Shown piece after piece: positions 3,792 through 46,828 of a stretch of DNA of 64,000 bases. This DNA comes from Dehalococcoidia bacterium (GTDB lineage Bacteria > Chloroflexota > Dehalococcoidia > SHYB01), in NCBI GenBank assembly GCA_965219875.1, contig CBDCOW010000001.1:1036468-1100467 (forward strand), written 5' to 3'. The position numbers were made by a program, and so were the translations under genes. Under the pieces are notes generated by a model. It saw only the letters and a list, made by a program, of their open reading frames with translations. It was not told the DNA's origin and did no database searches. How positions within the stretch are numbered: the stretch's first letter is position 1; the number at the start of each line of letters is the position of its first letter.

Positions 3792-4712
3792 CTAGCCCCC
3801 CGGCGCGAGGGCGGCGCAGGTGTTCTCGAAGGCGTCGGGAATGCGGTCGGAGGCGGCGCGAGTCGAGAGGATGAGCAGCTCCGCGCCTTGGTCGAAGAAG
3901 TCGTTCATGCTGGCCTTGATTTGGGCCGCCGTTCCGTAGAGGGAGAGTTCGTCCACCATCTCGTCGCTGACCGCGGCGATGGCGGCCTGGTTGTCGCCGC
4001 GGGCCAACGCCGCGCCGCAGGCCTCCGCCTCCACGCCGTAGCCCGCCTCCGCCATCAGCGCCTGATAGAAGGGGAGGCGCTGGTAGAAGGCCACGCCGGC
4101 GCGGGCGACCTCGCGGGCCTCCTCGACGTTCTCGGACAGCGCGCAGCCGAGGAAGAGGCAGGTCTTGGCCGTGGTCTTGCCGTCCGTCCGCCGCTCCGCG
4201 CCGTCCTGGAGCGCCCGCACCCATTGGGGCAGCAGCTTCTTGGGGATCATGTTCAGGATCGCGCCGTCGGAGAGCTCGCCCGCCGTCGCCGTCATCTTCT
4301 GGCGCAGGGCGCCGATGTACAGGCTGGGATCGCCCCACGTCTCGCCCTTCATAGCCGCGACGTAGTTGCGCAGGGCGGTGAGGGGCTTGGACATGTCGAT
4401 CCCGCGCGGCTCGTTCGTGGGTTGGTGGGCCGTCCCGAGGCCGAGGTCCATCCGCCCGCCGGAGACCTCATTGATGTAGGAAGTCTCCTGGGCGCAGATC
4501 GCGGGATGGCGCAGGTAGAAGTTGGTGATCGCCGAGCCGACGCGCACCCGCTCGGTGGCGAGCGCCATGTGCAGGCAGAGCGCCAGGCTCCCGACACCGG
4601 ATTCGGTGGAGTAGACGCCGTGGTAGCCGGCGCGCTCGACCATCCTCGCCTGCTCGGCGACTTTGGCCAGCTCTCCTTTGCCGCCCGAAACGACCAGCCC
4701 GATCTCTCGCAT
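3792..4712 (-). CDS. LLM-class (luciferase-like) flavin/F420-dependent oxidoreductase
   Basis: ATERVRVGSAITNFYLRHP, SGGRMDLGLG, ELSDGAIL; GGAGG RBS. Confidence 0.85.
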   Translation of the reverse strand: MREIGLVVSGGKGELAKVAEQARMVERAGYHGVYSTESGVGSLALCLHMALATERVRVGSAITNFYLRHPAICAQETSYINEVSGGRMDLGLGTAHQPTNEPRGIDMSKPLTALRNYVAAMKGETWGDPSLYIGALRQKMTATAGELSDGAILNMIPKKLLPQWVRALQDGAERRTDGKTTAKTCLFLGCALSENVEEAREVARAGVAFYQRLPFYQALMAEAGYGVEAEACGAALARGDNQAAIAAVSDEMVDELSLYGTAAQIKASMNDFFDQGAELLILSTRAASDRIPDAFENTCAALAPGG

Positions 4713-4888
4713 GTGGAACCTCCCAGAAGGAAATCGGGCGCATCATACACCGGCTGGTGCCTCTGAGCCGCGGGAGTAGGGGTAGTCCCTTCCTCAACGG
4801 AGGCTCTAGGGTAGGCGGCGCTGGCGGTTGCGGGGTTGAAGCGCTTCGATGGCCTTCGGTGGTTGTCGGGGGGGGGGCGTCCCCTTCC

Positions 4889-5764
4889 CTAATCCACGGT
4901 GAGGCTGATGTCGAGGGCGGGGGCGGAGTGGGTCAGCGCGCCGACGGAGATGAAGTCGACACCGGCCTCGGCGGCTTGGCGGGCGGTCTCGAGGGTGACA
5001 CCGCCGGAGGCTTCCGTCTTCGACCGCCCGGCGACGGCGCGGACCGCGTCGGCGAGCCGGGCCGGCATCATGTTGTCGAGCAGGATGAGGTCGGGAGCCG
5101 CCGCCGCCGCCTCGTCCGCCTCTTCAGGCGTCGTGACTTCGATCTCGATGGTCATGCCGGGGGGCGCCTTGGCCCGGGCCCGCTCGACGATCTCGGCAAG
5201 GCCCAGCCCCCCGCGGCGCAGCGTTGCGATGTGGTTGTCCTTGATCAGTACGGCGTCGGCGAGTCCGAGTCGGTGGTTGTAGCCGCCGCCGGCGCGCACG
5301 GCATATTTTTCGAGGAGCCGCAGCCCCGGCGTCGTCTTGCGGGTGTCGAGGATGCGCGCGCCCGTTCCGTCGACGGCGGCGGCGAAGCGCGCCGTCAGGG
5401 TCGCGATGCCGCTGAGGCGCTGCAACAGGTTCAGGGCCAGGCGTTCCCCCGCGAGTATCGACCCCAGTGCTCCCTCGACGACGGCCAGCGTCTGACCGGC
5501 CTCCACTGCGGCCCCGTCGCGTGTCTCGGAGGAGAAGCGCAGGCCCTGGTCGAGCTGGTGAAAGACCTCGGACGCGGCGGGCAGGCCGGCCACGATCCCC
5601 GGCTCCTTGGCCACGAAGCGGCCGGAGCCGAGCTCCTTGGCGTCGATGAGGACCCGCGTGGTGACGTCGTCGTCGGCGCCGTCCTCGCCGAGACCGAAGC
5701 GCGCGATATCCTCCACGGCCTCGTGGAGCAGCTCGGCGGGGACCTCTCTGGGGAAATCAGCCAC
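4889..5764 (-). CDS. nadC: Nicotinate-nucleotide pyrophosphorylase (carboxylating)
   Basis: ERLALNLLQRLSGIAT, DTRKTTPGLR, NHRLGLADAVLIKDNH, EASGGV, ISVGALTHSA. Confidence 0.95.
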   Translation of the reverse strand: MADFPREVPAELLHEAVEDIARFGLGEDGADDDVTTRVLIDAKELGSGRFVAKEPGIVAGLPAASEVFHQLDQGLRFSSETRDGAAVEAGQTLAVVEGALGSILAGERLALNLLQRLSGIATLTARFAAAVDGTGARILDTRKTTPGLRLLEKYAVRAGGGYNHRLGLADAVLIKDNHIATLRRGGLGLAEIVERARAKAPPGMTIEIEVTTPEEADEAAAAAPDLILLDNMMPARLADAVRAVAGRSKTEASGGVTLETARQAAEAGVDFISVGALTHSAPALDISLTVD

Positions 5765-6056
5765 GGCTACGCTCCGCGAGCCGTTTCTGCTCCGCGATGT
5801 GCGCTTCGGTGAGCCGGCGGTTCGTCTCGAGGTTCACCCACACGTGGGCGGGGACGCCAAGGACCCGTTCGATCCGCAACGCCGTATCCAGGGTGACCTG
5901 GGTGGTCCCCTTGATGAGCTCGTTGACCTCTGACATCGGCCGTCCCATGCGCCGAGCCAACTCCCGCGGGCTCATGCCGATCTCCTCCAGTTCTTCGAGA
6001 AGGATTTCGCCAGGGGTAGTCGGAGTGTCGGAAAAGATGACTTTGTCGTCAGCCAT
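5757..6056 (-). CDS. higA: HigA-family antitoxin (XRE HTH), orphan
   Basis: PGEILLEEL..GMSPRELARRMG, TALRIERVLGVPAHVWVNLE; stop overlaps nadC start. Confidence 0.8.
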   Translation of the reverse strand: MADDKVIFSDTPTTPGEILLEELEEIGMSPRELARRMGRPMSEVNELIKGTTQVTLDTALRIERVLGVPAHVWVNLETNRRLTEAHIAEQKRLAERSRG

Positions 6057-6080: not shown

Positions 6081-7295
6081 CTACAGGATCGCTCCCTCGG
6101 CCTTCATCTCCTGGAGGTCGTCCCAGGTGTAGCCGTACTCTTGGAGGACTTCTTCGGTGTGCTCGCCGAGCTCGGGGGCGGCGAGCCGGAGGGTCTGCGG
6201 CGTCTCGCTGAACTGGACGGGGAAGCCGGGGACCTTCGTCTTGCCGAACCGGGGATGGTCCCATTCGGTGATGTAGTCGTTGGCGATGACCTGGGGGTCA
6301 TCCTCCAAGTCGGCGATGTTGTTGATGCGGGTGTAGATGAGGTCGCCGGCGGCTTGGAACTTGCCGTCCCACTCCTCGTAGGTGCGCTCGGCGAACTTCA
6401 TGTCGAAGATGTCGACGAGCTCCTTGTTGTGACGCTCGCGGTCGAGGAGGGTGGCGAAGCGAGGGTCGTGTTCGAGCTCGGGTAAGTCAAGCGCCTTGCA
6501 CAGTGTAGGCCAGTAGCGGTCGCCCTGGACGAGGGCGAGGACGATCCACCGCCCGCCCTTGCAACGGTACCAGTTGGCAAGAGGATTCCTGGCGTCGGCG
6601 CGGTCCTGGTAGCCTGGGCCCTGGCCGGTTGCGGTGCGGGAGAGCACGGCGATGGACTGGAGGTTGATCATTGCGCCGAGCCCGGAGGAGAAGACCTCTT
6701 GGCCGAAGCCGTGGCGCTCGCGGGCGAGCAGGGCGGCGATGGCCCCGAAGGCGAGCCACACCGCGCCCATCTGGTCGGCCATGCCGGAGTTGTTCACCGG
6801 CGGCGCGTCGGGGCCGCCCGCGAGCGTCATGTTGCCGCTCGCGGCAAGCGTCACCGTGTCGAGGTTGGGGCGGTTGACGTGCGGCCCCTTGTGGCCGTAG
6901 CCGGTCGAGGAGGCGTAGACGAGCTTGGGGTTGATCTTGCGAAGGGTCTCGTAGTCCATGCCGAGGCGGGCCGCCGCTCCGGCGCGGTAGTTCTGGATGA
7001 GCGCGTCGGCCTTCTCGACGATCCGGTACATCGCCTCTAGGCCCTTCGGCGTCTTGAGGTTCAAGGCGATGCCGCGCGCGTTGCGGTTGTTCTTCTCCCA
7101 GATGAGGCTGCTGCCCGTCGGCATGGCGAGGTTTACGCCCTGGGCGCGGTTCAGGGTGCGCGCCATGTCGCCGACGCGGGGGTCCTCGACCTTGATGACC
7201 TCGGCGCCCATGTCGCCGAGGATCGTCGCCGCCATCGGGCCGGTCGCCCCGACCGTCCAGCTGATGACGCGCATGCCTTCGAGAATGGAACGCAC
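6081..7295 (-). CDS. Class III CoA-transferase (CaiB/BaiF)
   Basis: LGDMGAEVIKVE, NRNARGIALNLK, catalytic Asp in GMADQMG, APELGEHT; GTG start after GGAGGAG. Confidence 0.92.
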   Translation of the reverse strand: MRSILEGMRVISWTVGATGPMAATILGDMGAEVIKVEDPRVGDMARTLNRAQGVNLAMPTGSSLIWEKNNRNARGIALNLKTPKGLEAMYRIVEKADALIQNYRAGAAARLGMDYETLRKINPKLVYASSTGYGHKGPHVNRPNLDTVTLAASGNMTLAGGPDAPPVNNSGMADQMGAVWLAFGAIAALLARERHGFGQEVFSSGLGAMINLQSIAVLSRTATGQGPGYQDRADARNPLANWYRCKGGRWIVLALVQGDRYWPTLCKALDLPELEHDPRFATLLDRERHNKELVDIFDMKFAERTYEEWDGKFQAAGDLIYTRINNIADLEDDPQVIANDYITEWDHPRFGKTKVPGFPVQFSETPQTLRLAAPELGEHTEEVLQEYGYTWDDLQEMKAEGAIL

Positions 7296-7360
7296 CCGGC
7301 TCTCCTCCCGCGCCCACTGTGCCGCGCACGGGCTCGGCGAGCGTAGCAAGCGGCGATTTC

Positions 7361-7476: not shown

Positions 7477-8400
7477 GTGCCGCTTCACCCCCAAGCGCAA
7501 CGAGTCGTCGACGCGATGGCCGCCCTCAACCGGCCGCCGATGCAGACCCTGAACCCGCGCGACGCACGGGCCTTCTCCGCGGCGGCTCCGCGGCCCGCCA
7601 CGCCCGGCGTCGGCAAGATCCTCAACGACGTCATCCCCGGCCCCGGGGGCGACATACCCGTCCGCATCTACTGGCCCATCGAGCAGACCGGCTCCGGAAT
7701 CATCGTTTACTACCACGGAGGCGGATGGGTAATCGGCGATTTGTGGATGGTGGACGGGGTCTGCCGCCAGCTCGCCAACAAGTCGGGCTGCATCGTCGTC
7801 TCCGTCGATTACCGTTTGGCCCCGGAGCACAAGTTCCCCGCCGCCGCCGAGGACGCCTACGCCGCGGTGGTGTGGGCGCGCGACCATGGCGCGGAGCTTG
7901 GCGGCGACGGCTCGCGGATTGGCGTCACCGGCGATAGCGCCGGCGGCAATCTCACCGCCTGCGCCGCGGTTATGGCCGCCGAACGCGGCGGCCCCAAGAT
8001 CGCGCTCCAGGCCCCCCTCTACCCCGTGATCGCCGCCGACTTCGGGAACCAGTCGTACGGCGACCGCGCCGATGGGCCGATCCTGACCCGTGCGGCGATG
8101 GAGTGGTTCTGGGAGCTGTACCTCAACGACCCGTCGGAGGCGAAGCACCCCCACGTGGCGCCGATCTACTCCGAGCATCTCGCCAAGGCGGCGCCCGCGC
8201 TGGTGATCACCGCCGAGTATGACCCGCTGCGCGACGAGGGCGCCGCCTACGCCCGCGCCTTGCAGGAGGCCGGCGTCTCGGTCGTCCATCACGACTACCC
8301 CGGCGTACCCCATGGGTTCGTCACGATGTGGCACGCCATCGACCTGGGCATGGACGCGCTCAACGAGATCGCGTCGGCGATGAAGAAGGCGCTCGCCTAG
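7477..8400 (+). CDS. Alpha/beta hydrolase, hormone-sensitive-lipase family esterase
   Basis: HGGGW, YRLAPEHKFP, GDSAGG, EYDPLRDEG, HGF. Confidence 0.93.
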   Translation: MPLHPQAQRVVDAMAALNRPPMQTLNPRDARAFSAAAPRPATPGVGKILNDVIPGPGGDIPVRIYWPIEQTGSGIIVYYHGGGWVIGDLWMVDGVCRQLANKSGCIVVSVDYRLAPEHKFPAAAEDAYAAVVWARDHGAELGGDGSRIGVTGDSAGGNLTACAAVMAAERGGPKIALQAPLYPVIAADFGNQSYGDRADGPILTRAAMEWFWELYLNDPSEAKHPHVAPIYSEHLAKAAPALVITAEYDPLRDEGAAYARALQEAGVSVVHHDYPGVPHGFVTMWHAIDLGMDALNEIASAMKKALA

Positions 8401-8449
8401 GATTTGATCGCGCCGCGCCGATGAAGAAGCCGTGGTCTAGGAGTTAATC

Positions 8450-9379
8450 GTGCCGCTCGACCCGCAAGTCACTGCCCTGTTCGAATTGATGGGGCGCGCC
8501 GACGCGCCCTCGTATGAGGAGCAGACCCCCGTCGAGGCGCGGGGACGGGGCGACGCCGCGCCGACGCCGCCCGCTCCCGCCGTCGCCCGCATCGAAATGT
8601 TCGAGGCGCCCGGTCCCAACGGCGGGGTCCCCGTCCGCGTCTACACTCCCGAGGGCTCGGGGCCGTTTCCCGCGCTCGTCCTCATCCACGGCGGCGGGTG
8701 GGTCGTGGGCAGCATCTGGGGGTACGAGGCGACGGCACGGCTGCTCGCCAACGCGGCGGAATGTGTCGTCGTCTCGGTCGAGTACCGGCTGGCGCCGGAG
8801 CACAAGTTCCCCGCCGCGCCGGAGGACTGCTACGCCGCGACCAAGTGGACCTATGATCAGGCCGACCTGATCGGCGCCGACCCATCGCGCATCGCCGTCG
8901 CGGGAGCCAGCGCGGGGGGCAACCTCGCCGCCGTCGTAGCCCTCATGGCCCGCGACCGCGGGGGGCCGGACTTCGCGCTCCAGGTCCCGATCTACCCGGT
9001 CATCGAGCGCGACTTCACCCGGCCTTCCTACGTCGAAAACGGGCAGGGGCCGGGCCTCACCCAGCCTGCCATGGCGTGGTTCTGGGACCACTATCTCGCC
9101 GACGACGCGGACGCCGACCATCCCTACGTCTGCCCACTGCGCGCCGAAGCCCTCGCGGGCGTCGCTCCCGCGCTGGTCATCACCGCCGAGTACGACCCTC
9201 TCCGCGACGAGGGGCGCGCCTATGCCGACGCTCTCCGCGACGTCGGTGTCGCCGTGACCTACAGCGAGTACCCCGGCATGGCGCACGGCTTCTTCGGGTG
9301 GCACACCGCCGTCGACAAGGCCAAGGAGGCCGTGGCCGAAGTCGCTGCCGCTTTAAGGGCCGCGTTCGGGACGGGGTAG
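8450..9379 (+). CDS. Alpha/beta hydrolase, HSL-family esterase (tandem paralogue)
   Basis: HGGGW, YRLAPEHKFP, GASAGG, EYDPLRDEG, HGFF. Confidence 0.93.
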   Translation: MPLDPQVTALFELMGRADAPSYEEQTPVEARGRGDAAPTPPAPAVARIEMFEAPGPNGGVPVRVYTPEGSGPFPALVLIHGGGWVVGSIWGYEATARLLANAAECVVVSVEYRLAPEHKFPAAPEDCYAATKWTYDQADLIGADPSRIAVAGASAGGNLAAVVALMARDRGGPDFALQVPIYPVIERDFTRPSYVENGQGPGLTQPAMAWFWDHYLADDADADHPYVCPLRAEALAGVAPALVITAEYDPLRDEGRAYADALRDVGVAVTYSEYPGMAHGFFGWHTAVDKAKEAVAEVAAALRAAFGTG

Positions 9380-9434
9380 GGGCGCTCTACGCGACCCCTT
9401 CCCCTTCCAGAGAGAGGGCCGGAGCGGAGGGGGA

Positions 9435-9458
9435 GGGCGATTCGCGAATCGCCCCTAC
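9435..9458 (-). repeat. GTAG-type REP palindrome
   Basis: Identical to 504-527; lies between convergent genes. Confidence 0.75.
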
Positions 9459-9478
9459 GGGAGTAGTTGACCGCGCCG

Positions 9479-9691
9479 TTACGCGGTGATGTCGCTCTCG
9501 AAGTTGGTGCTGGCGTGCGTTCCGTCGCAGAAGGGCTTCGTCGCGGACTGGCCGCAGCGGCAGAGAAAGACCGTGCCGCTGTCGTCGGCGATGCCTTCTA
9601 GGGAAAGGGCGTTCTTCCCCGACGAGTCGGTGACTTTCTCCACGCCGGTAACCATGTAGGGGCCGTGTTTGATCGGTCGGACTTGGGCCAT
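9479..9691 (-). CDS. CDGSH iron-sulfur domain protein
   Basis: GPY and LCRCGQSATKPFCDGTH; GGAGGAG RBS before ATG 9691. Confidence 0.92.
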   Translation of the reverse strand: MAQVRPIKHGPYMVTGVEKVTDSSGKNALSLEGIADDSGTVFLCRCGQSATKPFCDGTHASTNFESDITA

Positions 9692-9797
9692 CGTTAGACT
9701 CCTCCGGATTCGCGCCCTGCCGGCCCTTGCCGCGGGGCCGGAGTCGCGGCGGCGCTCATGGTACACGATGCGGGCGCGCGGCGGGAGGCGCGGCGCG

Positions 9798-10688
9798 CTA
9801 GAACAGGCTCGTGGCGAGCTTGGGGTCGAGCCAGTCGTAGTCGGGGTCGTTGGGGTCGGGCCGGGGCATGAGGAGGAGGCGCGAGCCGAGGCCGGAGCGG
9901 GGATGGACGGTGTAGCGCAGGGCCTTGTCGTGGAGCAGGCCGATGCCCTTGGAGCGGAGGTAGCGCCCGGCTTCTTCGAGGTCGCGGACGACAATGGCGA
10001 GGGTGTGCAGCCCCTGGCCGCCCTGGCGGTTGATCACGGACGATAGGACGTTGTTGTCCCGCCGCGGCTTCAGGACGGAGATGCGTGCCCGTTCGTACAC
10101 GAAGAAGTGCGAGGCGGTGGCGTAGATCCCGTTGGTGCGCCCGCCGATGAACACGCCGCCGAGGACGCCGCCGAAGAAGTCGTCCACCGCGTCAAGATCG
10201 TCGGCGAGCAGGGTGATCGACCAGAGGCGCTGTGCTCCCATCGCCCCGTCGGCCTCAAGGGACCGCTCGTAGAACCCCGGCTCCCGGCGCGGGTCGTTCG
10301 GCAGGTCGGCGTCGCTGAACTCGATGATTGTGCCGAAGGTGCGTTCGGGGTCGGCGGTGCAGTGGCCGGGAGACTCCTCGACGACGCCGACACCGGCGGT
10401 GCGGAGGTGAGCGGCGGCTTCCGCGGCGTCGTCCACCTTGAATGTGAAGGAGCGGAGGAAGCCGCCGTAGCGTTCGAGGTAGGACCGCGGCCCTTCGCCT
10501 AGGTCGAAGGGATCGACGAGCTCGACGCAGGCGTCGGCGAGGGTGAGGAGGGTGACGTTGCCCGCGCGGGGTCCGAGGGGGCCTTCGTAGAAGACCCTGG
10601 CCCCGAAGACGTCGCGGTAGAGGGCGAGGGCGGCCTCGCGGTCGGCGACCACGTGGGTCACGCGGGATACGTCGCGGATGCGGATCAT
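9798..10688 (-). CDS. VOC-family (glyoxalase/methylmalonyl-CoA epimerase-like) two-domain protein
   Basis: VVADREAALALYRDVFG, VELVDP, GQGLHTLAIVVRDLEEA. Confidence 0.75.
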   Translation of the reverse strand: MIRIRDVSRVTHVVADREAALALYRDVFGARVFYEGPLGPRAGNVTLLTLADACVELVDPFDLGEGPRSYLERYGGFLRSFTFKVDDAAEAAAHLRTAGVGVVEESPGHCTADPERTFGTIIEFSDADLPNDPRREPGFYERSLEADGAMGAQRLWSITLLADDLDAVDDFFGGVLGGVFIGGRTNGIYATASHFFVYERARISVLKPRRDNNVLSSVINRQGGQGLHTLAIVVRDLEEAGRYLRSKGIGLLHDKALRYTVHPRSGLGSRLLLMPRPDPNDPDYDWLDPKLATSLF

Positions 10689-10754
10689 CGAAGGCGCTGC
10701 CTTCCGTTTCGGCCCGCGCCCACCGGGATCAAGGAAGCGGGAGTCCGTCCAAGG

Positions 10755-12902
10755 TTACCGCGCGGCGGCGCCGGCGAAGGGCTGGATGAGGAGCCGGAGC
10801 GTGCCGTCGCCGTCCTTGCGCTGGGTGACGATGCGGTGCCCCGCCTCCTCGGCCCAGGTGATCACGTCGTAGATGTTCAGCGCGTCGGCCATGATCGCCT
10901 CGACGAGGGAGGCGCCATCGGCTTGGGTCTGGCGGGTGAGGGCGGCGATGACGCCGGCGCAGTTCTTGCCGCGCCCGTCGACGATCACCCAACCGCTTGC
11001 GGCGGGCGCTTCGCCGGCGCGGACGTCGACCTCGCCGGTCTTCCGCGCATCGAGTTGCCGTTTGAACTCGGCGACGGACTCCCAGGCGACGGCGCGGCCG
11101 CGGTCGCCGCTGGAGCAGACGGCCCCGCGCACGCCGACGATGTCGGGGTTGATGCGGGCGAGCTCGTCGATGTCGCTCATGCGGAGATGCCCGGAGAGGG
11201 CGGTGCTCATGCCGACCTTCTTCCCAGCGAAGACGATCTCGCGGAGCTTGGGCTCAGGGATGAAGTCGAAGAGGTTGCGCCCGTCCTTGGTCAGGGTGTC
11301 GATGAGCCAGCCGTCGCAGCCGGTCTCCTCGGCGAGCCGGGGCATGAGGAGGGGGTCGAGCCCGCCGTAGAGGTGGTTGTCGGCGAAGAGGGAGCCGATG
11401 AGCTTGGTCTCGCTGCCTTCGAGGGCGCGCTTGGATTCGCGCAGCACGTCGACCGCCATGTCGTAGTCGGAGCGCACGAAGCCGACCTTCACCGAGGTCG
11501 CTTGCAGCTTGGCCGCGGAGTAGACCGCCATGGCCACGGTGCCGGCCTGGTTGGGCACGACGCCGAGGGTGACGCTGACATGCTTCTCCTCGGGGATGCG
11601 CGCCCGCACCTGCTCGACGAGCAGCGGATGGCCGGAGCCGACCATCGCCTCCTGCAGGTTCTTGATGTCGATGATATCTGCGCCGCCGCGGTCGGCCTCC
11701 AGGGCCTCGGGCATGTCCTGGACGCTGACCATCAGCATCATGCCGGACTCCGAGGTGATGCCGCTGGGGCGCGGCTGGGCCTGGGGGGCGCCGTTGCGGG
11801 CGCTGCCGTTCGTGGGGGCCTGCTCGGTGACGTAGATCCTGGAGAGCGCCTCTTGCTGGTGGCTCAGCCCCGGGTTCGCCGAGGCCGTCTTGATGGGGGC
11901 GGGCGGCGCCGGCGCGGGCTCGGGGGCGCGCGCGGGGGCGGGGCGCAGGGCGCGAAGCTCGCGCAGGAGCTCGTCTTTCTCGGCGTCGTCGAGGTCGCGT
12001 AGCGGCAGGCGGACGTGGCCCGTCTGGAGGCCCATGAGCTGGCCCCAATACTTCACCATGCTGACGGGGAGGGCGCCGCCGAACTTCTGCACGGTGCGGC
12101 CCCACCACTTGTCGTTCAACTGCTTGATCGCCTTCAGGTGCGTCTCATAGAGCGCTTGGTCGAGATCGCCCTTGGTGGCGCGCTCGATGTACTGCACGTA
12201 GTGGTTCGCGCCGGGCATGTCGAACCGCCAGTCGGAGGTGTTGGCGAAGATGACCTGCTGGCGGAAGCCGAGTTGCTGGGCCTTGGGGAAGATCCACTCG
12301 TCGGGGGTGCTGATGATCGCCTGCTTGCCGATGAGCAGGTGGGTCTCAATCGATATCTGCTGGCTGAAGCTGGCTTCCTTGACGCCGACCACGTTGGGGA
12401 CGGCGCAGAGGCGCTTCAGTCCCTGGGGGCTCACGACGATGCCGAACTGCGGCGAGTTGTAGAACATGATCGCCAGCGAGGTGCGCTCGGCGAGGGCGGT
12501 GATGAATTCGACGACCTGGTTTTCGGTCTTCGTGACCATGTAGGGGGCCGCCGCGATCAGGAGGTCGTAGCCGGTGGACTCGGCGAGGGCGGCGAGACCG
12601 GCGGCTTCCTTGAGGGAGGTGTGGGTGACGTGCGCGGCAATGGGCCACTCGCCCGCGGCCTCGTCGGCGACGGTCTCGATGACCTTGCGGCGCTCGTCGC
12701 CGGTGAGGCTCCAGAACTCGCCCATGCCCCAACTCGACCCCGCGCCCCGCGTGCCCAGGCTGCGGATGTAGCGGATGTTGTGGCGGATGGCCGCCTCGTC
12801 GATTTCGTCGTCGGGGGTGAACGGCGTGGGGAGCGTGGTCCACTCGCCGGTCAGATTTTCCCAAGCCCAGTCTTGGGCCTCGTGTTTGGCATACCCCGCC
12901 AT
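10755..12902 (-). CDS. Fusion: DapA-like class I aldolase + MfnB-like (5-formylfuran-3-yl)methyl phosphate synthase + TusA-like domain
   Basis: aa1-320 TPF, GEFWSLT, FYN, VVGVKEAS; from aa388 LMVSV, GGADIIDIKN, VKVG, IDTLTKDG, DIVGVRGAVC; from aa638 VDGRGKNC...WAEEAGHRIV. Confidence 0.82.
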   Translation of the reverse strand: MAGYAKHEAQDWAWENLTGEWTTLPTPFTPDDEIDEAAIRHNIRYIRSLGTRGAGSSWGMGEFWSLTGDERRKVIETVADEAAGEWPIAAHVTHTSLKEAAGLAALAESTGYDLLIAAAPYMVTKTENQVVEFITALAERTSLAIMFYNSPQFGIVVSPQGLKRLCAVPNVVGVKEASFSQQISIETHLLIGKQAIISTPDEWIFPKAQQLGFRQQVIFANTSDWRFDMPGANHYVQYIERATKGDLDQALYETHLKAIKQLNDKWWGRTVQKFGGALPVSMVKYWGQLMGLQTGHVRLPLRDLDDAEKDELLRELRALRPAPARAPEPAPAPPAPIKTASANPGLSHQQEALSRIYVTEQAPTNGSARNGAPQAQPRPSGITSESGMMLMVSVQDMPEALEADRGGADIIDIKNLQEAMVGSGHPLLVEQVRARIPEEKHVSVTLGVVPNQAGTVAMAVYSAAKLQATSVKVGFVRSDYDMAVDVLRESKRALEGSETKLIGSLFADNHLYGGLDPLLMPRLAEETGCDGWLIDTLTKDGRNLFDFIPEPKLREIVFAGKKVGMSTALSGHLRMSDIDELARINPDIVGVRGAVCSSGDRGRAVAWESVAEFKRQLDARKTGEVDVRAGEAPAASGWVIVDGRGKNCAGVIAALTRQTQADGASLVEAIMADALNIYDVITWAEEAGHRIVTQRKDGDGTLRLLIQPFAGAAAR

Positions 12903-13097
12903 TGCTGTCCCTTCCTTACTACGCCCTAGCCTTGGCGCGCCGGTGGGATGGCCGTCGAAAACGGCCTCTCTCCAGAAGTAACGCGGCTTCGAGTCTAGGC
13001 GCTTCCCCCCATAGGGTCAAGCCTGCCGTGAAGGGAGCGGCGACCCTTTAGGCGCCCGCGCCTGTGGCGCGCGCCCTCTCTCAGTCTCCCCCATAGG

Positions 13098-13272
13098 GAG
13101 ACCTTTGCGTAACTCGGCGGGCGGGCTTCAGCAAGGTCGCGCGGCCCCCGCCGCCCCCCGCCCTCACCCCAACCCTCTCCCAGCGGGAGAGGGGGCAAGA
13201 CCCCGCGCCGCCTCCCTGTCCCAAGGCCAGCGGGCGGCGTTCTTCGCCTCGACGGAGTTTTGCAGAGGTCTC
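13098..13272. mobile_element. MITE with IS5-type TIRs and target-site duplication
   Basis: GAGACCTTTGCGTAAC...GTTTTGCAGAGGTCTC, flanked by CATAGG on both sides; internal CCCTCTCCC-AGC-GGGAGAGGG hairpin. Confidence 0.85.
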
Positions 13273-13300
13273 CATAGGGGACAGGTCGGGGCAGAGAGGA

Positions 13301-13325
13301 GGGCGCCCACAAGGGAGGCCCCTAC
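13301..13325 (-). repeat. GTAG-type REP variant
   Basis: Minus strand GTAGGGGCCTCCCTTGTGGGCGCCC; similar to 56147-56171. Confidence 0.6.
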
Positions 13326-13344
13326 GGGACGGGACCCCGGCCCC

Positions 13345-14955
13345 TCAATGTGCGGGGGCGCTTCCCTGCATGATCAGGCTCAGGATGTCTTGGCTGGTGA
13401 CCGAGCCGAGGAACCGGCCCGACTCCCGGTCCATCACCGGTATCACCGACAGTGCGTGGTCGGTCATGCGCTCCAGCACGTCGTCGATCATCTCGTCGGG
13501 CCAGGCCGTCGGCACACGGCGGCGCATGAGGGAGCGAATCTTGGCCCTGGACCACGTGCGCTTGGGGAGGAAGCGCAGCCGCGTCAGCGACACGATCCCC
13601 GAGACCTCCCCGTCGTCGATGACGACGTAGTCGTGCTGATGGGGGACGAGCCACCGCTCGGTGAAGCTGAGCACGGAGAGGTCGGAAGCAGGGTAGCTCC
13701 GCGACGTGTCGAGGATGTCGTTGACCGTGATGGTGTCCAGGGCGTAGCGGGCGTAGGAGGGCGTCGCTGCCTCGGGCATGACGGGGTCGTTGGAGGCCTT
13801 GGCCCTGTTGACCGCGAAGCTGAGCGCCGGCGGCGTCAAGAGGATGAAACCGAACATAATGAGGACGAGCAGGGAGAAGATGGCCTGCGAGATCGCACCG
13901 GACTCGAAGAGGACGAGCAACAGGGCGATCTCGGCGACGCCCTTCGCCATAAGGCCCATCGCTAAGGGGAAGGGCATATCGAGCCGGGCGGCGAAGGGCC
14001 CGGCGAAGGCGCCGGCGAGCTTGCCCAGCACGGCGACGCTCACGACCGCCGCGATGGTCCACGCCGACAGCTCGGTGAAGGAGAGGTCGACGTGGAGGCC
14101 AGCGGAGGCGAAGAAGAGCGGGACGAAGAGGCCCTCCGTCGTGCTCCGCAGGCCGGGCATGATGTCGAGTCGTACGCGGTGGGGCATGCCCGAGAGCGCC
14201 GCGCCGAAGAGCAGTGCGCCGATGGAGCCGTGGAGCCCGATCTCCTCGGCGGCCACGACCATGAGGAACAGCCCGCCCAAGAGCAGACCGAAGGGAAGCT
14301 GGGGGGCGCTGAGGAAGCGCTGGAGGAGGATGATCAAGGGAGGAAGCACCTGCGCCGACAGCACCCACGCGACGACCGCGAAGGCGATGATCTGTCCCAG
14401 CAGGATGGGTAGTTGGCTGATGCCGGGCGGCTCGTCGTGGCCGGCCTCGCTGATGGTGAACCCCACGATGAGCAAGGCGATCAGCTCCGCGATGATCACG
14501 GTGGTGAATATTTCGAGGCCGAGCGGTTCCTTCAGGTGCCCTTCGTCGGCGAGCACCTTGGCCACGATGCCGAGGCTCGACAGCGCTAAGACGCCGGACA
14601 GCGCCAGCGCCGAGGTGAAGGGAAGGTCGAGGACGAAGTGGGTGACGCCAAGCGCGGCAAGGAGGGGGACCATCACCGACACCGTCGCGGCGACGAAGAA
14701 CCGCCCCCGTATCGTCGCCACGAAGCCCGAGATGTCGACCTCGTCGAGGCCGATAAGGAAGAAGAAGACAAAGACGCCGACGCTGAAGAAGAGGGCCGAC
14801 TCCTCGGTTGGCTCGACGACGCCGAGGACGGGGCCGAGGAGGACGCCGGTGGCGGTGTAGGCGATGATCGAGTTCAGCCCGAGGCGGCCAAAGACACCCT
14901 CGGCGATCTTGGCGACGACGAGGAGCAGGCCGATGGAGAGGACCGCGTCGATCAT
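13345..14955 (-). CDS. Cation:proton antiporter (CPA2) with C-terminal CBS pair
   Basis: About 12 hydrophobic helices, GVLLGP, LFVPLFFASAG, KGVAE; CBS-type C-terminus (IPVMD..GRFLGSVTSQDIL). Confidence 0.88.
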   Translation of the reverse strand: MIDAVLSIGLLLVVAKIAEGVFGRLGLNSIIAYTATGVLLGPVLGVVEPTEESALFFSVGVFVFFFLIGLDEVDISGFVATIRGRFFVAATVSVMVPLLAALGVTHFVLDLPFTSALALSGVLALSSLGIVAKVLADEGHLKEPLGLEIFTTVIIAELIALLIVGFTISEAGHDEPPGISQLPILLGQIIAFAVVAWVLSAQVLPPLIILLQRFLSAPQLPFGLLLGGLFLMVVAAEEIGLHGSIGALLFGAALSGMPHRVRLDIMPGLRSTTEGLFVPLFFASAGLHVDLSFTELSAWTIAAVVSVAVLGKLAGAFAGPFAARLDMPFPLAMGLMAKGVAEIALLLVLFESGAISQAIFSLLVLIMFGFILLTPPALSFAVNRAKASNDPVMPEAATPSYARYALDTITVNDILDTSRSYPASDLSVLSFTERWLVPHQHDYVVIDDGEVSGIVSLTRLRFLPKRTWSRAKIRSLMRRRVPTAWPDEMIDDVLERMTDHALSVIPVMDRESGRFLGSVTSQDILSLIMQGSAPAH

Positions 14956-14986
14956 TCTGTCACGCGCCCGCGGCGAATTTGACCTA

Positions 14987-15346
14987 TTCTAGCGCCTCCC
15001 GGCCTACGGCCCCCGGCCGTCGACGCACCCCCTCTCTCAGTCTTCCCAGAGGAGATACTTGTGTAACTGGGGGTTGGCGGCTGCGCGAGGGTGGTCGGCC
15101 CCCGCCTCCCCCCGCCCTCACCCCAACCCTCTCCCAGCGGGAGAGGGAGCTAAGACCCCTTGTCCCCGCCCTCTTCTAGCGCCTCCCGGCCTACCGCCCG
15201 GGGCGCCGGCGCGCCCCCTCTCTCAGTCTTCCCGGAGGAGATACTTGCGTAACTGGGGGTTGGCGGCTCCGCGAGGGTGGTCGGCCCCCGCCTCCCCCCG
15301 CCCTCACCCCAACCCTCTCCCGGCGGGAGAGGGAGTTAAGACCTCT
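14987..15346. repeat. Tandem ~187-bp duplication of composite palindromic repeat with degenerate MITE left ends
   Basis: Units start 14987 and 15174; each has CCCTCTCTCAGTCTTCCC..., GAGATACTTG(T/C)GTAAC and CCCTCACCCCAACCCTCTCCC...GGGAGAGGG. Confidence 0.85.
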
Positions 15347-15397
15347 CGCCCCTACGGGATTGGTGCCGTTGCGCGGGTGGGTGGGTGTCCCGCCGGG

Positions 15398-16309
15398 TTA
15401 GGCCGGGGCGGCGGCCTTGGAGGGTTCGAGGCGCATGATCTGCCGCGCCTCGGCGGGTGTGGCTACGTCGCGGCCCAGGGAGCGCGACGCTTCGGCGACC
15501 CGCCGCACCTGCTCGGCGGTGCTCATCGGCTTGCCTTCGTAGAGGAGGTTGTCGCCGATGCCGGTGCGGATGTGCCCGCCCATCAGAATGGCGGAGTTGT
15601 TGACGATGTGGTGGCTCGCGCCTTGGCTCTGGGTGAACCACTCGTAGTCGAGGCCGGCGGGCAGCCAGTCGAGGAACGCCTGTATCGAGCGGGGCTCGGG
15701 CGGTAGGTTGTACAGCAGGTCGTCGTTGAACCCGAACTTCAGCAGCAGCGGCTCTTCGATTAGCCCCATATCCATGAAGGCTTCGAGGTGGCGGATATGG
15801 CCCAACTCCCGCATCCCGAACCGGGGCTTGAGTCCGAGCTCCTGCATCTTCCGCAGCGTCTCGATGGTCTCGCCGTGCGTGTTCACGTACATGTGATCGG
15901 GGTTGATGAAGCGCTTCGCCTCGCGGTCGTACTTGCCGCGCAGCATGGCCCCGGTGTCCACGTCCATGAAGGGGAGGGCGACGTCGGGGTCCTCGGCCAG
16001 GGCGACGACGTGGGCGAACCGGGCGAGGCCGAAAAGTGTGTCGGACTGCGGCGGCCAGGTGGGGTAGCAGATCGCGTCGCTGTGCTCGGCGATCAACTGG
16101 AAGGTCTCCTTGTAGATCTCGACATCTTGGAAGCGCTGCGCGCCCGTCTTGGGGTCGCGGGCGTGGATGTGAATGATGGAGGCGCCGGCCTCGACGCATT
16201 CGAGGGTGTTCTCCATGATCTGGCGCGGCGTCAGCGGCACCGCGGGGTAAGCCTCAATGGGGACGACCTCGTTGACCGTGACCTCGATGCAAAGCTTGGG
16301 ATGCGCCAT
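15398..16309 (-). CDS. Beta-keto acid cleavage enzyme family (DUF849/Kce-like)
   Basis: VPLTP, EAGASIIHIHARD, GGHIRTGIGDN, GRDVATPAEAR. Confidence 0.88.
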   Translation of the reverse strand: MAHPKLCIEVTVNEVVPIEAYPAVPLTPRQIMENTLECVEAGASIIHIHARDPKTGAQRFQDVEIYKETFQLIAEHSDAICYPTWPPQSDTLFGLARFAHVVALAEDPDVALPFMDVDTGAMLRGKYDREAKRFINPDHMYVNTHGETIETLRKMQELGLKPRFGMRELGHIRHLEAFMDMGLIEEPLLLKFGFNDDLLYNLPPEPRSIQAFLDWLPAGLDYEWFTQSQGASHHIVNNSAILMGGHIRTGIGDNLLYEGKPMSTAEQVRRVAEASRSLGRDVATPAEARQIMRLEPSKAAAPA

Positions 16310-16327: not shown

Positions 16328-17455
16328 CTAGGCCATCAGCTTCTCAGGGTCGCCCATGTTGTAGAAGCGAATCGCTCCCTCGGCCAGAATGCGGCGTTTC
16401 GTCTCGGCGGAGAGCCCGTCCATGCGGCGGATCATGTCGGGCGCGCCGGGGAAGCCGTCGGCGTGCGGGTAGTCGGTGGCCCACAGGATTTTGTGCGGGC
16501 CGATGTAGTCGGCGAGGTAGGGGAGGTTGCCTTCGATGGGCTCGAAGGATATCCAGGCCTGCCGCTCGAAGATTTCGCTGGGCTTCCGCGAGATCAGACC
16601 GTCGTTCCACGATTCTTGCTCGTAGTGACGGTCCATGCGGTCAAGCCAGCCCGCGATCCAGCCGCCGCCCGACTCCATGAAGGCGAAGCGGAGCTTGGGG
16701 AACCGCTCGCAGATGCCGCACATGAGGAGTCCGGCGCAGGCGGCCATCATCTCCAGGGTGTGCGACACGACGTGGGCCACGCCGGCCGTCTTGAAGCGGT
16801 CGGCCCCAAGGCCGGGAACGCCGCCGCCGACGTGGATCGCCATCGACACGTCCATCTCCTGCGCCGCCGCCCAAATCGCGTCGTTCGCGGGGTCGTGGAT
16901 GTAGCGCCCGTCGACGGGGTTTGCCCGGATGAAGGCGGCGCCGAAGCCGAGCTCGCGGCGGGCGTATTCGAGCTCGGCCACGGCCACTTCGACGGATTGC
17001 AGGGGCAGCATGGCGAGGCCGAAGAGGCGGTCGGGGTGGGCGGCGCAGTAGTCGGCGAGCCACCGGTTGTAGGCCCGGCAGACCGCCGCGCCGAGGCCGG
17101 GGTCTTGGATGCGGCCCGAGAGGAAGAGTCCGAGTGTGGGGAAGGAGAAGGAGGCGTCGACGCCCTCGGCGTCCATGTCGATGATGCGGGCGTCGGGATT
17201 GAAGCCGCCGCGCCGCCCGCTGGCGTAGGGGAGCGGGCCTTCGGTACGCGGCGCGCCGTAGCTCCCCGTCCCGCCGAACCCCTGGGGCAGCGACCAGACC
17301 GCGGTCTCGACCCGCAGGTGTTCCGCGCCGCCGTCCTCCGTAGTGAACACCGGCGCACGCTCCCGGTAGGCGGGGTCGATGTACCGCTCCCACAAATCAG
17401 GAGGCTCGAGGACGTGCCCGTCGGAATCGATGACGTGGTAGCTGCGGCTGCTCAT
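16328..17455 (-). CDS. Amidohydrolase (Amidohydro_2)
   Basis: IDSDGHVLEPPDLW, AYNRWLADYC, ERFPKLRFAFMESG, WATDYPHAD. Confidence 0.92.
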   Translation of the reverse strand: MSSRSYHVIDSDGHVLEPPDLWERYIDPAYRERAPVFTTEDGGAEHLRVETAVWSLPQGFGGTGSYGAPRTEGPLPYASGRRGGFNPDARIIDMDAEGVDASFSFPTLGLFLSGRIQDPGLGAAVCRAYNRWLADYCAAHPDRLFGLAMLPLQSVEVAVAELEYARRELGFGAAFIRANPVDGRYIHDPANDAIWAAAQEMDVSMAIHVGGGVPGLGADRFKTAGVAHVVSHTLEMMAACAGLLMCGICERFPKLRFAFMESGGGWIAGWLDRMDRHYEQESWNDGLISRKPSEIFERQAWISFEPIEGNLPYLADYIGPHKILWATDYPHADGFPGAPDMIRRMDGLSAETKRRILAEGAIRFYNMGDPEKLMA

Positions 17456-18471: not shown

Positions 18472-19623
18472 ATGCCCGGTCAACGCGACGCAGACAGGCC
18501 CATTTTGCGCACGCCTCTCTGCGACCTGCTCGGCGTTGAATACCCCGTTTGTCTTGCCGGTATGGGGTCGCACGGCCGGGCCACGCCGCCCGCGCTGGTG
18601 GCGGCCGTCTCGAACGCCGGAGGCCTTGGGGTCGCGGGAGGCGCGAACCTTACCCCTGGCGAGATCCGAAGTCGCATCCGCGAGATCAAGACGCTCACGG
18701 ACAAGCCCTTCGCGGTCAACCTGCTTTTCCCCGCGAGTTTGAGCCAGGCGGAGAACTCCAGGTCGCAAATCCGCGACCTCTTGCAACGCGACTATCCCCA
18801 ACACGTCGCGTTCGTGAAAGACCTCTTGCGGAAGTTCAGCCTGGACGATGCGCCAGTCGAGCAGGAGAGCGTGCTCGCTACCGGCGATATCCAGGAGCAG
18901 TTCCGAGTCGTCCTGGAAGAAGGAGTTCCCATTCTCTCGGCTGGACTTGGAGACCCTTCGTGGGCGGTCCCGATGGCGAGGGAACAGGGGATGAAAGTCA
19001 TCGGGCTGGCGGGCTCGGTCCGAAACGCCATGCGTCAAGTGGAGGCGGGCGTCGACGCTGTCGTGGCGCAAGGGTACGAGGCGGGCGGCCATACGGGCCG
19101 GGTTGCGACGTTGCCCCTGGTCCCGCAGGTCGTGGACGCGGTGGCGCCGACGCCCGTTCTGGCGGCGGGAGGCATCGGCGATGGCCGGGGCCTTGCCGCC
19201 GCGCTGTCCCTCGGGGCCGTGGGGGCCTGGGTCGGCACCGCATTTCTTACTTCGGTCGAAAGCGGGGTCTGGGAGGTCCAGAAGCAGGAGATCCTGGGTG
19301 CACGGTCGGAGGACTTTCCGGTCACCCGGGCGTATACGGGGAAGACGGCCCGCGATTACAAGAACATCGTTATCGACGCCTGGGAGTCGTCCGGCCTGGA
19401 GCCGCTCCCTATGCCCCTGCAGCAGGTGCTGATGGAGGACTTCTCCTCCGCGGCCATGAACGCGGGGCGCTACGACCTGGTCAACAGCCCGGCGGGCCAG
19501 ATAGGCGGCATGGCCACCGAGCTGAAGCCGGCGGAGCGCATTCTTCGAGAAATGGTCGAAGGCGCGATTTCCGTCATCGCGGAGCAGCAGGGCTTCGTCG
19601 TTTCGCCGCCGGCCCTGGCCTGA
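18472..19623 (+). CDS. Nitronate monooxygenase / FabK-like flavoprotein
   Basis: AAVSNAGGLG, KPFAVNL, QGYEAGGHTG, AAGGIGDGRG, GTAFL. Confidence 0.9.
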   Translation: MPGQRDADRPILRTPLCDLLGVEYPVCLAGMGSHGRATPPALVAAVSNAGGLGVAGGANLTPGEIRSRIREIKTLTDKPFAVNLLFPASLSQAENSRSQIRDLLQRDYPQHVAFVKDLLRKFSLDDAPVEQESVLATGDIQEQFRVVLEEGVPILSAGLGDPSWAVPMAREQGMKVIGLAGSVRNAMRQVEAGVDAVVAQGYEAGGHTGRVATLPLVPQVVDAVAPTPVLAAGGIGDGRGLAAALSLGAVGAWVGTAFLTSVESGVWEVQKQEILGARSEDFPVTRAYTGKTARDYKNIVIDAWESSGLEPLPMPLQQVLMEDFSSAAMNAGRYDLVNSPAGQIGGMATELKPAERILREMVEGAISVIAEQQGFVVSPPALA

Positions 19624-19702: not shown

Positions 19703-20833
19703 ATGGCGAAGGGCGGCTATAAGGTCATGGACTCGGACATGCACGTGTTCGAGCCTCCCGACCTGTGGCAACGCTACACCGCCCCCGAATTCCGAGACAT
19801 CGCTCCCCGCTGTATGTCGGACGAACCCCGCGACTTCGCGATGGAGTTCGTGGGCGAGGTTATTCCCGTTCCGTCCCTGCATGAGGACGCGGTCAGCATC
19901 GAAGCGCGCCGCCAGACCGAGGAAAACCAGGCCCGCCAATACGCCCACGCCATCGATCGGATGTGGGACGCGGAGTCCCAAATCCAGGCAATGGACTCGG
20001 AAGGGATCGACGTGGCGGCCATGTATCCAAGCAGGGGGCTCATGCCGCTCGCCATCGACGGCCTCGATCCCCCGCTGGGGGCCGCCGTTGCCGCGGCGTA
20101 CAACGACTGGCTCCACGAGTTCTGTCAACGGGACCCCGACCGGATGTTCGGCGTCGCCATGGTGTCCCTCCACGACGTGCCTTCAGCCGTCGAAGAGGCG
20201 CGGCGGGCGGTACGGGAGTATGGGTTCAGAGGCGTCTTCTTGCGGCCGAACTTCCTCAACAAACGGCCCTGGCACGACTCCTACTACGATCCGTTTTGGG
20301 CCGCGGTCGAGGAGCTTCAGATAGGGATCGGCTTCCACGAAGGGGGAGCAGTGCCCGCGATGCAAGTGGGCAAAGAACTCGAAAGCGAAGCGCTCCACCA
20401 TATCGTTTCCCACCCCCTGGAGATGATGCTGGCCGCGGTGAGCCTGATCGGCGGAGGGGTCTTCGAGCGATTTCCGGGCCTACGCGTCGCGTTCCTGGAG
20501 GCGAACTGTTCCTGGGTCCCGTGGATGCTCTGGAGAATGAACGACGTGCTGGAGCCTACGACGTGGGCGGGCCTGCAACACCTCGACTTGAAGCTCAAGC
20601 CCAGCGAATACTTCGAGCGCCATTGCTACGTGTCAATCGAGCCTGATGAAGAGCCGGCGAAGAACGTCTTGGACCTGATCGGGCAGAAGAACGTCGTCTT
20701 CTCCACCGACTATCCCCATCTCGACTCGAAATTCCCCAAGGCCATCGACTATTTTCTCGAACAACCTATAACGCAGGACGAAAAGCGGCGGTTCCTGTGG
20801 GACAACTGCGCCCGCTTTTATGGTTTTGCCTGA
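19703..20833 (+). CDS. Amidohydrolase (Amidohydro_2)
   Basis: DSDMHVFEPPDLW, AYNDWL, FHEG, FSTDYPH. Confidence 0.92.
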   Translation: MAKGGYKVMDSDMHVFEPPDLWQRYTAPEFRDIAPRCMSDEPRDFAMEFVGEVIPVPSLHEDAVSIEARRQTEENQARQYAHAIDRMWDAESQIQAMDSEGIDVAAMYPSRGLMPLAIDGLDPPLGAAVAAAYNDWLHEFCQRDPDRMFGVAMVSLHDVPSAVEEARRAVREYGFRGVFLRPNFLNKRPWHDSYYDPFWAAVEELQIGIGFHEGGAVPAMQVGKELESEALHHIVSHPLEMMLAAVSLIGGGVFERFPGLRVAFLEANCSWVPWMLWRMNDVLEPTTWAGLQHLDLKLKPSEYFERHCYVSIEPDEEPAKNVLDLIGQKNVVFSTDYPHLDSKFPKAIDYFLEQPITQDEKRRFLWDNCARFYGFA

Positions 20834-43459: not shown

Positions 43460-45304
<1,845 letters not shown>

Positions 45305-45517
45305 CGCCCCTCGATTATCGCACGCCGCCACTGTCTTAACCCGCTCTCTGCTGGGAGGATCGGGGGCGGCCACGGGCGACTGGATAGGGGGCGCCCTCTC
45401 TCAATCTCCCCCAGAGGGGACCTTTGTTTAACCGGGGTGACTGACCGCGAAGGTGGGCGAACTCCGATAACCCGTGGTGGTTGCGAGGCGGCCCCTCATC
45501 TCAATCTTCTCCCGTTG

Positions 45518-46732: not shown

Positions 46733-46828
46733 CGTTGAGAGAAGAGGCAAGACCTCCCGGCCCTACCCATGCTTGAGCCCGAGGGCGGGTTGCGCAAAGG
46801 TTTCCGGTGGGTGAGAGGGCGGCGGGGA

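Follow-up and report, generated by a model that had tools for sequence, protein, structure and literature searches.

A fused aldolase, MfnB-like and TusA-fold gene and its two-gene counterpart in SAR202-type Dehalococcoidia

In a 64,000-nucleotide stretch of the genome of a Dehalococcoidia bacterium (GenBank assembly GCA_965219875.1, contig CBDCOW010000001.1; hereafter the window), we identified a gene that joins in one reading frame a domain resembling dihydrodipicolinate synthase (DHDPS), a barrel resembling the furan synthase MfnB, and a small C-terminal domain with a TusA-like fold. The fused gene is the minority form of a two-gene pair conserved in SAR202-type Dehalococcoidia. Our overall reading is that this conserved module also carries out a three-step chemistry leading to a furan-type product other than methanofuran, and we regard that reading, taken whole, as evenly balanced. 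Its observed parts are held with high confidence, while the specific chemistry is put forward tentatively.

All three domains have known folds; what is new is that they are obligately combined and that the combination occurs outside methanofuran metabolism. An earlier note, made from the letters of this DNA, knew of no description of the architecture. Indeed, no published account of the fusion or its clade was found in a literature search that left subscription journals and supplements outside its coverage. However, the architecture is neither rare nor unrecorded in databases, where it stands under automatic names only ('dihydrodipicolinate synthase family protein' and 'UPF0264 family/dihydrodipicolinate synthase/.../TusA-related sulfurtransferase'). 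The note had also called the gene a three-enzyme fusion. The three-domain architecture is real, but its third part, a small carrier-type domain with a Cys, is not a demonstrated enzyme.

The features of the gene are given below in window coordinates, against which the codon positions of the key residues were checked.

10755–12902, minus strand: whole open reading frame (ORF) of 715 amino acids (aa), stop codon included, encoding the DHDPS-like domain, linker, MfnB-like domain and TusA-like domain
11952–12851, minus strand: DHDPS/NAL-family class I aldolase domain, residues 18–317 (Pfam PF00701)
12459–12461 and 12378–12380, minus strand: codons of Tyr148 and of the Schiff-base-type Lys175, both family-invariant
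11742–11951, minus strand: Pro/Ala-rich linker, residues 318–387, poorly conserved and of varying length in the conservation and occupancy profile
11739–11751, minus strand: GGAG (11748–11751), a 6-nucleotide spacer and the ATG of Met388 (11739–11741)
11064–11735, minus strand: MfnB-like TIM barrel of the 4-HFC-P synthase family, residues 390–613 (Pfam PF04476)
11661–11663, minus strand: codon of Lys414 in the MfnB-like domain
10782–10982, minus strand: TusA-fold domain, residues 641–707 (Pfam PF01206 below cut-off; assigned by fold match)
10959–10961, minus strand: codon of Cys648, at the start of helix 1 of the TusA-fold domain

The fused gene and its two-gene counterpart

Translation of the minus strand, which the earlier note had left unspecified, confirms its uninterrupted 715-aa frame, with zero internal stops. 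Every motif that it quoted is present: FYN (Tyr148), GVKE (Lys175), DIIDIKN (Asp412 and Lys414), VKVG (Lys472), DTLTKDG (Asp535 and Lys539), GVRGAVC, VDGRGKNC (Cys648) and WAEEAGHRIV. The GC content of the ORF is 0.94 at third codon positions versus 0.46 at second positions. Because of this bias and the many relatives in databases, the ORF is a genuine single gene and not a chance frame.

A search of 5.8 billion proteins, in which 8000 candidates were scored, returned 493 proteins of 393–1252 aa at E ≤ 0.001. The 120 of these matches that were listed cover 97–100% of the query at 61–95% identity and carry both PF00701 and PF04476. Among 110 loci examined, some of which represent the same genome fetched twice, both halves lie in one frame in 87 and are not fused in 23.

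The unfused form is widespread. Stand-alone proteins of approximately 326 aa, consisting of the MfnB-like barrel with the TusA-like tail, are common (1097 matches up to 392 aa), and many are encoded on megabase contigs. In one SAR202-type order (that of locus L048, from a SAR202 metagenome-assembled genome (MAG), and of genome G415), 21 of 126 module-holding genomes have frames of 640 aa or more; the rest (about 105) have shorter ones. In all 20 split loci that were fetched, the MfnB-TusA gene is immediately preceded on its own strand by a DHDPS-like gene. The DHDPS-like gene ends about 90 nucleotides before the MfnB-TusA gene, and its product is 52–68% identical to the N-terminal domain encoded in the window.

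The boundary between the two genes can be followed into the fused form. Linker residues 318–387 correspond to the end of the upstream gene together with the spacer of about 90 nucleotides in split genomes. Stand-alone MfnB-TusA genes begin at the equivalent of Met388, as matches to a query of residues 386–715 start at its residues 1–3. The internal ATG that the earlier note had pointed out, with GGAG 6 nucleotides before it, lies at exactly this place; Met388 with its GGAG is thus the putative surviving start site of an ancestral stand-alone MfnB-TusA gene, and internal initiation at Met388 of the fused gene is possible. A stop in the linker of close relatives had been named as a sign that two genes are present. 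True splits do occur in distant relatives, but eight of the ten module-holding genomes of the window's own order have one clean frame, the halves lying in different frames in the other two (L090 from G405 and L095 from G401).

In a quick maximum-likelihood tree of the MfnB-TusA part, 81 fused and four non-fused rows form one clade of 85 (SH-aLRT 95). Midpoint rooting, the only rooting applied to this quick tree, places the fused clade inside the split forms. The fused or split label requires five changes on the tree, at least three of which are forced by well-supported branches. Since split pairs occur in 20 of 20 loci and the fused clade is nested among split forms, the likely history is an ancestral two-gene operon that was fused mainly once.

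Three domains and a candidate chemistry

The N-terminal domain matches PF00701 over residues 18–317 (E 1.9e-34, 119.2 bits versus a cut-off of 22.1). As in the DHDPS/NAL family members DapA, NanA and KdgD, the YN..P and GVKE motifs carrying Tyr148 and Lys175 are kept. Both residues are invariant in 48 family sequences and line up with YN and GVK in structures of DHDPS, which the family profile matches at E 3.9e-24. In three printed alignments to structures of the Protein Data Bank (PDB) it is mainly residues 15–204 that align, whereas residues of about 200–300 align weakly or not at all; this second part holds many family-invariant residues, for example in STPDEW and FANTSDWRFD. The best NCBIfam match of the domain is the KdgD subfamily at 95 bits, below its curated cut-off, and no equivalog cut-off is reached. 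A GEF[W/F]SL stretch presumably resembles that of KdgD-type proteins. We predict that the domain is a Schiff-base 2-oxo-acid enzyme, a divergent class I aldolase of the DHDPS/NAL family with unassigned specificity.

MfnB forms 4-(hydroxymethyl)-2-furancarboxaldehyde phosphate (4-HFC-P) from two molecules of glyceraldehyde-3-phosphate. To our knowledge, its only known role is in methanogens and methylotrophs, where it catalyses the first step of methanofuran biosynthesis. The central domain of the fused protein matches PF04476 (4HFCP_synth) over residues 390–613, covering profile positions 1–227 of 228 (E 3.4e-56, 191 bits versus a cut-off of 22.4), and the whole barrel matches PDB 4rc1 (Methanocaldococcus jannaschii MJ1099) at E 2e-43. 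A set of 106 ordinary MfnB representatives has 21 positions with conservation of 90% or more, and the fused and paired clade keeps the same residue at 17 of them. Asp412, Lys414, Lys472, Asp535 and Lys539 are 100% conserved in the clade and 98–100% conserved in the 106 representatives. An excerpt of PMC6604932 describes two Lys and two Asp of MfnB as essential and Lys27 as forming the Schiff base, and an excerpt of PMC11365854 names Lys155 as catalytic. Compared with MJ1099 (PDB 4rc1 and 4u9p), the barrel retains both Lys (the Schiff-base residue and the second one), both Asp and the equivalent of Lys155. The catalytic Lys and Tyr of the DHDPS-type domain and the TusA-type Cys, which the earlier note had pointed out, are kept as well.

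The barrel nevertheless belongs to a group of its own. In a search of 1.84 billion representatives the clade stands sharply apart, with members at least 55% identical to the query and ordinary MfnB at most 46% identical. Ordinary MfnB representatives match only query residues of approximately 3–264 and do not have the TusA-like tail. In contrast to MJ1099, members of the window's clade always carry that tail and are always paired or fused with a DHDPS-like aldolase. Matches in the ESM Atlas were to MfnB-family clusters only.

One of those clusters, at rank 29, is archaeal (mostly Promethearchaeota), and 32% of its members have a match to Pfam QRPTase_C, which could reflect cross-matching between barrels or a real link. 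The window contains a nadC gene at 4889–5764.

The C-terminal domain was recognised mainly by its fold. Its AlphaFold2 model (pLDDT 87.6) has the order beta-alpha-beta-alpha-beta-beta, with the Cys starting helix 1. Among 48,161 chains, its best match by structural alignment is the SirA-like 3hz7 (Z 11.5, root-mean-square deviation (rmsd) 1.7 Å over 72 residues), followed by E. coli TusA (3lvj_C, Z 11.0) and YeeD/TsuB (8j4c_B, Z 10.9); the next match has Z 8.7. For these three relatives together the rmsd is 1.7–2.6 Å over 72–77 residues. The E-values that Foldseek gives for the model are weak, at 6e-3 to 5e-2. When the model is aligned to E. coli TusA, its range 7–80 corresponds to range 7–80 of the chain, so that model Cys19 falls on TusA residue 19, which we take to be the active Cys. 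The domain has a motif Asp-x-x-Gly-x-x-Cys, with Cys at the N-terminus of helix 1, that would correspond to that of TusA, SirA and YeeD. Asp642, Gly643, Gly645, Lys646 and Cys648 are invariant in 71 sequences (Cys648 in 71 of 71), and Cys648 is at least 98% conserved in 241 sequences. The modelled fold and the invariant Cys support a TusA-type identity. In contrast to TusA, Cys648 is followed by Ala instead of Pro, and the domain is never free-standing but always C-terminal to an MfnB-like barrel.

The hosts are uncultured SAR202-type Chloroflexota, and SAR202 bacteria are highly abundant in the dark ocean. When one genome per GTDB species was scanned, 286 genomes were found to encode a relative; nearly all of the best 80 are labelled as MAGs of Dehalococcoidia, SAR202 or Chloroflexota, apart from one MAG each of Bipolaricaulia and Actinomycetota. 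The module is present in 10 of 16 genomes of the window's own order and in 126 of 201 sampled genomes of the order of L048 and G415. Across orders, identity to the window's protein is 52–76%. Sequencing runs that match the gene bear sponge-metagenome labels. Contigs from RNA libraries (X15 and X17) cover parts of the gene at 90–99% identity, which suggests that relatives are present in metatranscriptomes, although transcription is not thereby proven.

In these hosts the module does not serve methanofuran-dependent one-carbon metabolism. Neither Ftr (PF01913) nor Mch (PF02289) was found in the window's genome, which is 94% complete, under a search that matched methanogen controls, and Ftr was found in none of the 201 sampled genomes of the order with the 126 module holders; among methanofuran-related genes, Ftr and Mch were those searched genome-wide, and mfnA, C, D, E and F were not searched for. 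The earlier note had seen no methanofuran or tetrahydromethanopterin genes nearby and suggested looking across the genome. In agreement with its observation, no such family occurs among the 41 window ORFs scanned, and the genome-wide result extends it.

The module also replaces none of six common steps of metabolism, since the window's genome (G000) and a second holder of the module (G410) both have DAHP synthase, DHQ synthase, PdxS, ThiG, NadA and Dxs. All six also occur in the non-holders G402 and G412, and five in the non-holder G195, where the match to ThiG is weak and partial. A replacement of the entry steps of the shikimate pathway had been considered because a convergent gene for prephenate dehydratase (PDT and ACT domains) lies about 1.8 kb downstream of the MfnB-TusA gene in 12 of the 20 split loci (L096–L115). 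This idea was rejected, as DAHP and DHQ synthases are present in all five genomes. Roles as an alternative synthase for pyridoxal phosphate, thiazole, quinolinate or 1-deoxyxylulose 5-phosphate were likewise rejected on the presence of PdxS, ThiG, NadA and Dxs in both holders.

Because the hosts are without the two methanofuran-requiring enzymes, the gene probably makes an uncharacterised metabolite. The suggestion in the earlier note of a furan or sulfur-containing metabolite or cofactor is still the best reading, and we infer that the end product would be of furan type, possibly sulfur-bearing, and not methanofuran. In a first step, the MfnB-like barrel would act on triose phosphate through a Schiff base on Lys414 with the participation of Asp412, Lys472, Asp535 and Lys539, yielding a six-carbon aldehyde that would be 4-HFC-P or, given the change of Asp to Val448, a close variant. 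In a second step, the DHDPS-like barrel would form an enamine of Lys175 with pyruvate or another 2-oxo acid and add it to this aldehyde, extending the side chain, by analogy with pyruvate-dependent aldolases and hydratase-aldolases of the DHDPS family. Hydratase-aldolases such as NahE belong to the DHDPS/NAL family of pyruvate-dependent class I aldolases. In a third step, Cys648 of the tethered TusA-fold domain would deliver persulfide sulfur into the intermediate or hold the reactive aldehyde. This is the simplest scheme for two Schiff-base barrels, one of them with the full MfnB set, that are coupled to the point of fusion.

A sister clade of MfnB in hosts without the two methanofuran-dependent enzymes suggests an uncharacterised small molecule, perhaps a cofactor, and would widen the chemistry known for the MfnB fold. 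With everything contained in one or two genes, the system could be tested with one expressed protein.

Weighing the scheme and its alternatives

A number of results weigh against the proposed scheme. The activity of all domains and the order of the two aldolase steps are predictions only. For the N-terminal domain, the DapA equivalog TIGR00674 scores 83.8 bits against a cut-off of 206.15. In the PDB alignments the triad partners of DHDPS are lost (Thr44 is replaced by Gly59 and Tyr107 by Met122), as is the aspartate-semialdehyde-binding Arg138 (replaced by Phe153); the positions replaced are presumably those of E. coli DapA numbering. Because of these losses, and because a separate true DapA is encoded on contig C3 (298.9 bits), the domain is not DapA, and the missed cut-off agrees with this rejection. 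For the barrel, the NCBIfam MfnB equivalog NF002573 scores 193.6 bits against a cut-off of 341, and NF002575 also falls short (177 bits versus 304). At four near-invariant MfnB positions the residue is changed (Leu to Met391, Gly to Ala419, Asp to Val448 and Ala to Ser570), the Asp replaced by Val448 being 93% conserved in ordinary MfnB, and the product may therefore be other than 4-HFC-P.

The third domain adds further doubt. The earlier note named a failure to match the MfnB or TusA profiles as a ground for refutation. PF00701 and PF04476 match above their cut-offs. However, PF01206 scores only 18.4 bits over residues 641–707 (E 0.002) against a cut-off of 28.6, so TusA identity is not established by sequence. 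PF01206 is listed in the precomputed Pfam columns for a minority of relatives, and a sequence profile of the domain matched no PDB sequence even at E 10. The two-domain AlphaFold2 model has a predicted template modelling score (pTM) of 0.69 and a low-confidence tether, so that it does not settle where the Cys lies with respect to either active site.

Distribution and genomic context weigh on the same side. The genomes G402, G195 and G412, of the same family as the window's, have no module, and in a phylum-wide sample 2 of 401 genomes matched at E ≤ 1e-20, namely the window's own genome and one with an ordinary MfnB-like gene at 38% identity. Given this patchy distribution the module is dispensable. 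No conserved neighbour supplies later steps, and the neighbours that recur are housekeeping genes. No riboswitch was found either, with no Rfam match at window positions 9000–15500 at E ≤ 1; in eight split loci the only Rfam match is to transfer RNA.

Of the alternatives, one that we consider unlikely, but that survives best, is that the TusA-fold domain is a structural, oligomerisation or regulatory appendage rather than a sulfur carrier, and that the product contains no sulfur. The sub-threshold Pfam score and the Cys-Ala in place of Cys-Pro fit such a role, as does the lack of a sulfur-mobilising gene among the conserved neighbours, and Smr, Alba and IF3-C domains have the same beta-alpha-beta-alpha-beta-beta fold with Z 7–8.7. 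However, the top three fold matches are all TusA, SirA or YeeD and stand more than two Z units above the rest, and the stretch Asp-Gly-x-Gly-Lys-x-Cys, whose Cys starts helix 1 and is aligned with the presumed active Cys of TusA, is invariant.

It is less probable again that the DHDPS-like domain works upstream of the barrel as a KD(P)G-type aldolase, cleaving a 2-keto-3-deoxy sugar acid phosphate to pyruvate and glyceraldehyde-3-phosphate and thus feeding the MfnB-like domain. The DHDPS family includes KD(P)G aldolases, a fusion of supplier and consumer would follow a common pattern, and the fused protein weakly matches NF040954 (Arch_KDGaldase; E 1.7e-09, 37.4 bits). That match is far weaker than those to KdgD and DapA, and a dedicated supplier of glyceraldehyde-3-phosphate, an abundant central metabolite, would hardly be needed. 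Moreover, the half of the domain that would set specificity (residues of about 200–300) is the part that the three PDB alignments cover poorly, so that nothing there points to sugar acids.

A variant of our proposed scheme, which we consider improbable, would make the module a sulfur-inserting furan synthase that produces an uncharacterised sulfur heterocycle or cofactor. A six-carbon intermediate of 1,4-dicarbonyl type would be closed or decorated with sulfur from the TusA-type Cys, as a counterpart of Paal-Knorr thiophene formation or of the conversion of an aldehyde to a thiol, and the DHDPS-like aldolase would then extend the sulfur-bearing intermediate with pyruvate. If so, the product would be a sulfur heterocycle or cofactor characteristic of deep-ocean and sponge-associated SAR202 bacteria.

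That the barrel is an ordinary MfnB, making the furan of a methanofuran- or methylofuran-type one-carbon cofactor with accessory domains attached, is very improbable. Its PF04476 score and conserved catalytic residues would suit that role, but the equivalog cut-offs are missed, the clade is separated from ordinary MfnB by the identity gap described above, and Ftr and Mch, the methanofuran-related enzymes covered by the search, are wanting in the genomes searched for them. Finally, there is almost no chance that the fusion is an assembly or frameshift artefact in an organism that really has two genes, a view for which one could cite the roughly 105 of 126 split holders in the other order, the GGAG and ATG at the domain boundary, and three loci whose halves lie in different frames (L090 from G405, L095 from G401, and L034), since 87 of 110 loci carry both halves in one frame, eight of the ten holders in the window's order do so cleanly, fused forms cluster in the tree, a 1014-nucleotide contig of run X1 (which may be the sample of origin) crosses the linker from 11289 to 12113 with zero differences and no gaps, and no insertion or deletion is listed in any of four sequencing runs.

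Neighbouring genes and the rest of the window

The module stands alone among housekeeping genes, and its neighbours vary between lineages. Those that recur encode IleRS, Fpg, ThiD, acetyl-CoA synthetase, SpeE/SpeD, SbcC, RecG, Trk and FakA; Trk potassium-uptake genes and recG also recur near the split loci L096–L115. The earlier note proposed a link to the downstream VOC and CDGSH genes. This did not hold up, as the two accompany the fused gene only within the genus (L005–L008, L085 and L087–L091) and were not found in the other loci, including L092–L094 from other genera of the same family; an operon with them was therefore rejected.

Two single loci offer leads at most. In L012, from the MAG labelled Actinomycetota, a NifU_N (IscU-type) gene at 7876–8400 and a class III aminotransferase gene at 8440–9777, both on the plus strand, follow the fused gene on its 3' side on the same strand, with gaps of 18 and 39 nucleotides. 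This cluster is possibly an operon hinting at sulfur or Fe-S handling and amination of an aldehyde. In L062, from a SAR202 MAG, a UbiA-type prenyltransferase (4383–5282, plus strand) and a UbiX-type flavoprotein (5290–5880, plus strand) are encoded directly upstream of the fused gene, on its own strand.

Two ORFs near the fused gene appear to be misdrawn. A 171-aa ORF at 9479–9994 (minus strand) and the VOC gene overlap, and roughly the first 100 residues of this ORF are of low complexity. Relatives match only its residues 100–171, and the probable start of the CDGSH protein is Met102, which would leave about 70 aa. The 105-aa ORF at 12995–13312 (minus strand), which lies directly 5' of the fused gene, is unlikely to be a gene; it matches no Pfam family, and tblastn at E ≤ 1e-8 gave nothing in the other loci that were fetched.

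Elsewhere in the window, four genes encode family III CoA-transferases (6081–7349, minus; 26246–28735, plus; 34568–37009, plus; and 39074–40396, plus), two of which, at 829 and 813 aa, are of double length with two CoA_transf_3 stretches each. Five Amidohydro_2 paralogues lie at 16328–17455 (minus), 19703–20833 (plus), 40428–41630 (plus), 60458–61561 (minus) and 61584–62843 (minus). There are also luciferase-like monooxygenases (3792–4712 and 22070–23170), a BKACE enzyme (15398–16309) and a nitronate monooxygenase (18472–19623); together with the Amidohydro_2 paralogues, they make up a paralogue-rich catabolic content that presumably resembles that reported for SAR202-type genomes. Two Abhydrolase_3 esterases, 307 and 309 aa long, are encoded by paralogous genes in tandem (7477–8400 and 8450–9379, both plus). 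A DDE transposase gene (DDE_Tnp_1 and DUF772; 45674–46750, minus) adjoins lepA (43460–45373). Near the N-terminus of a family 5 solute-binding protein (54210–56051, plus) there is a collagen-like repeat (Pfam Collagen, E 1.6e-07).

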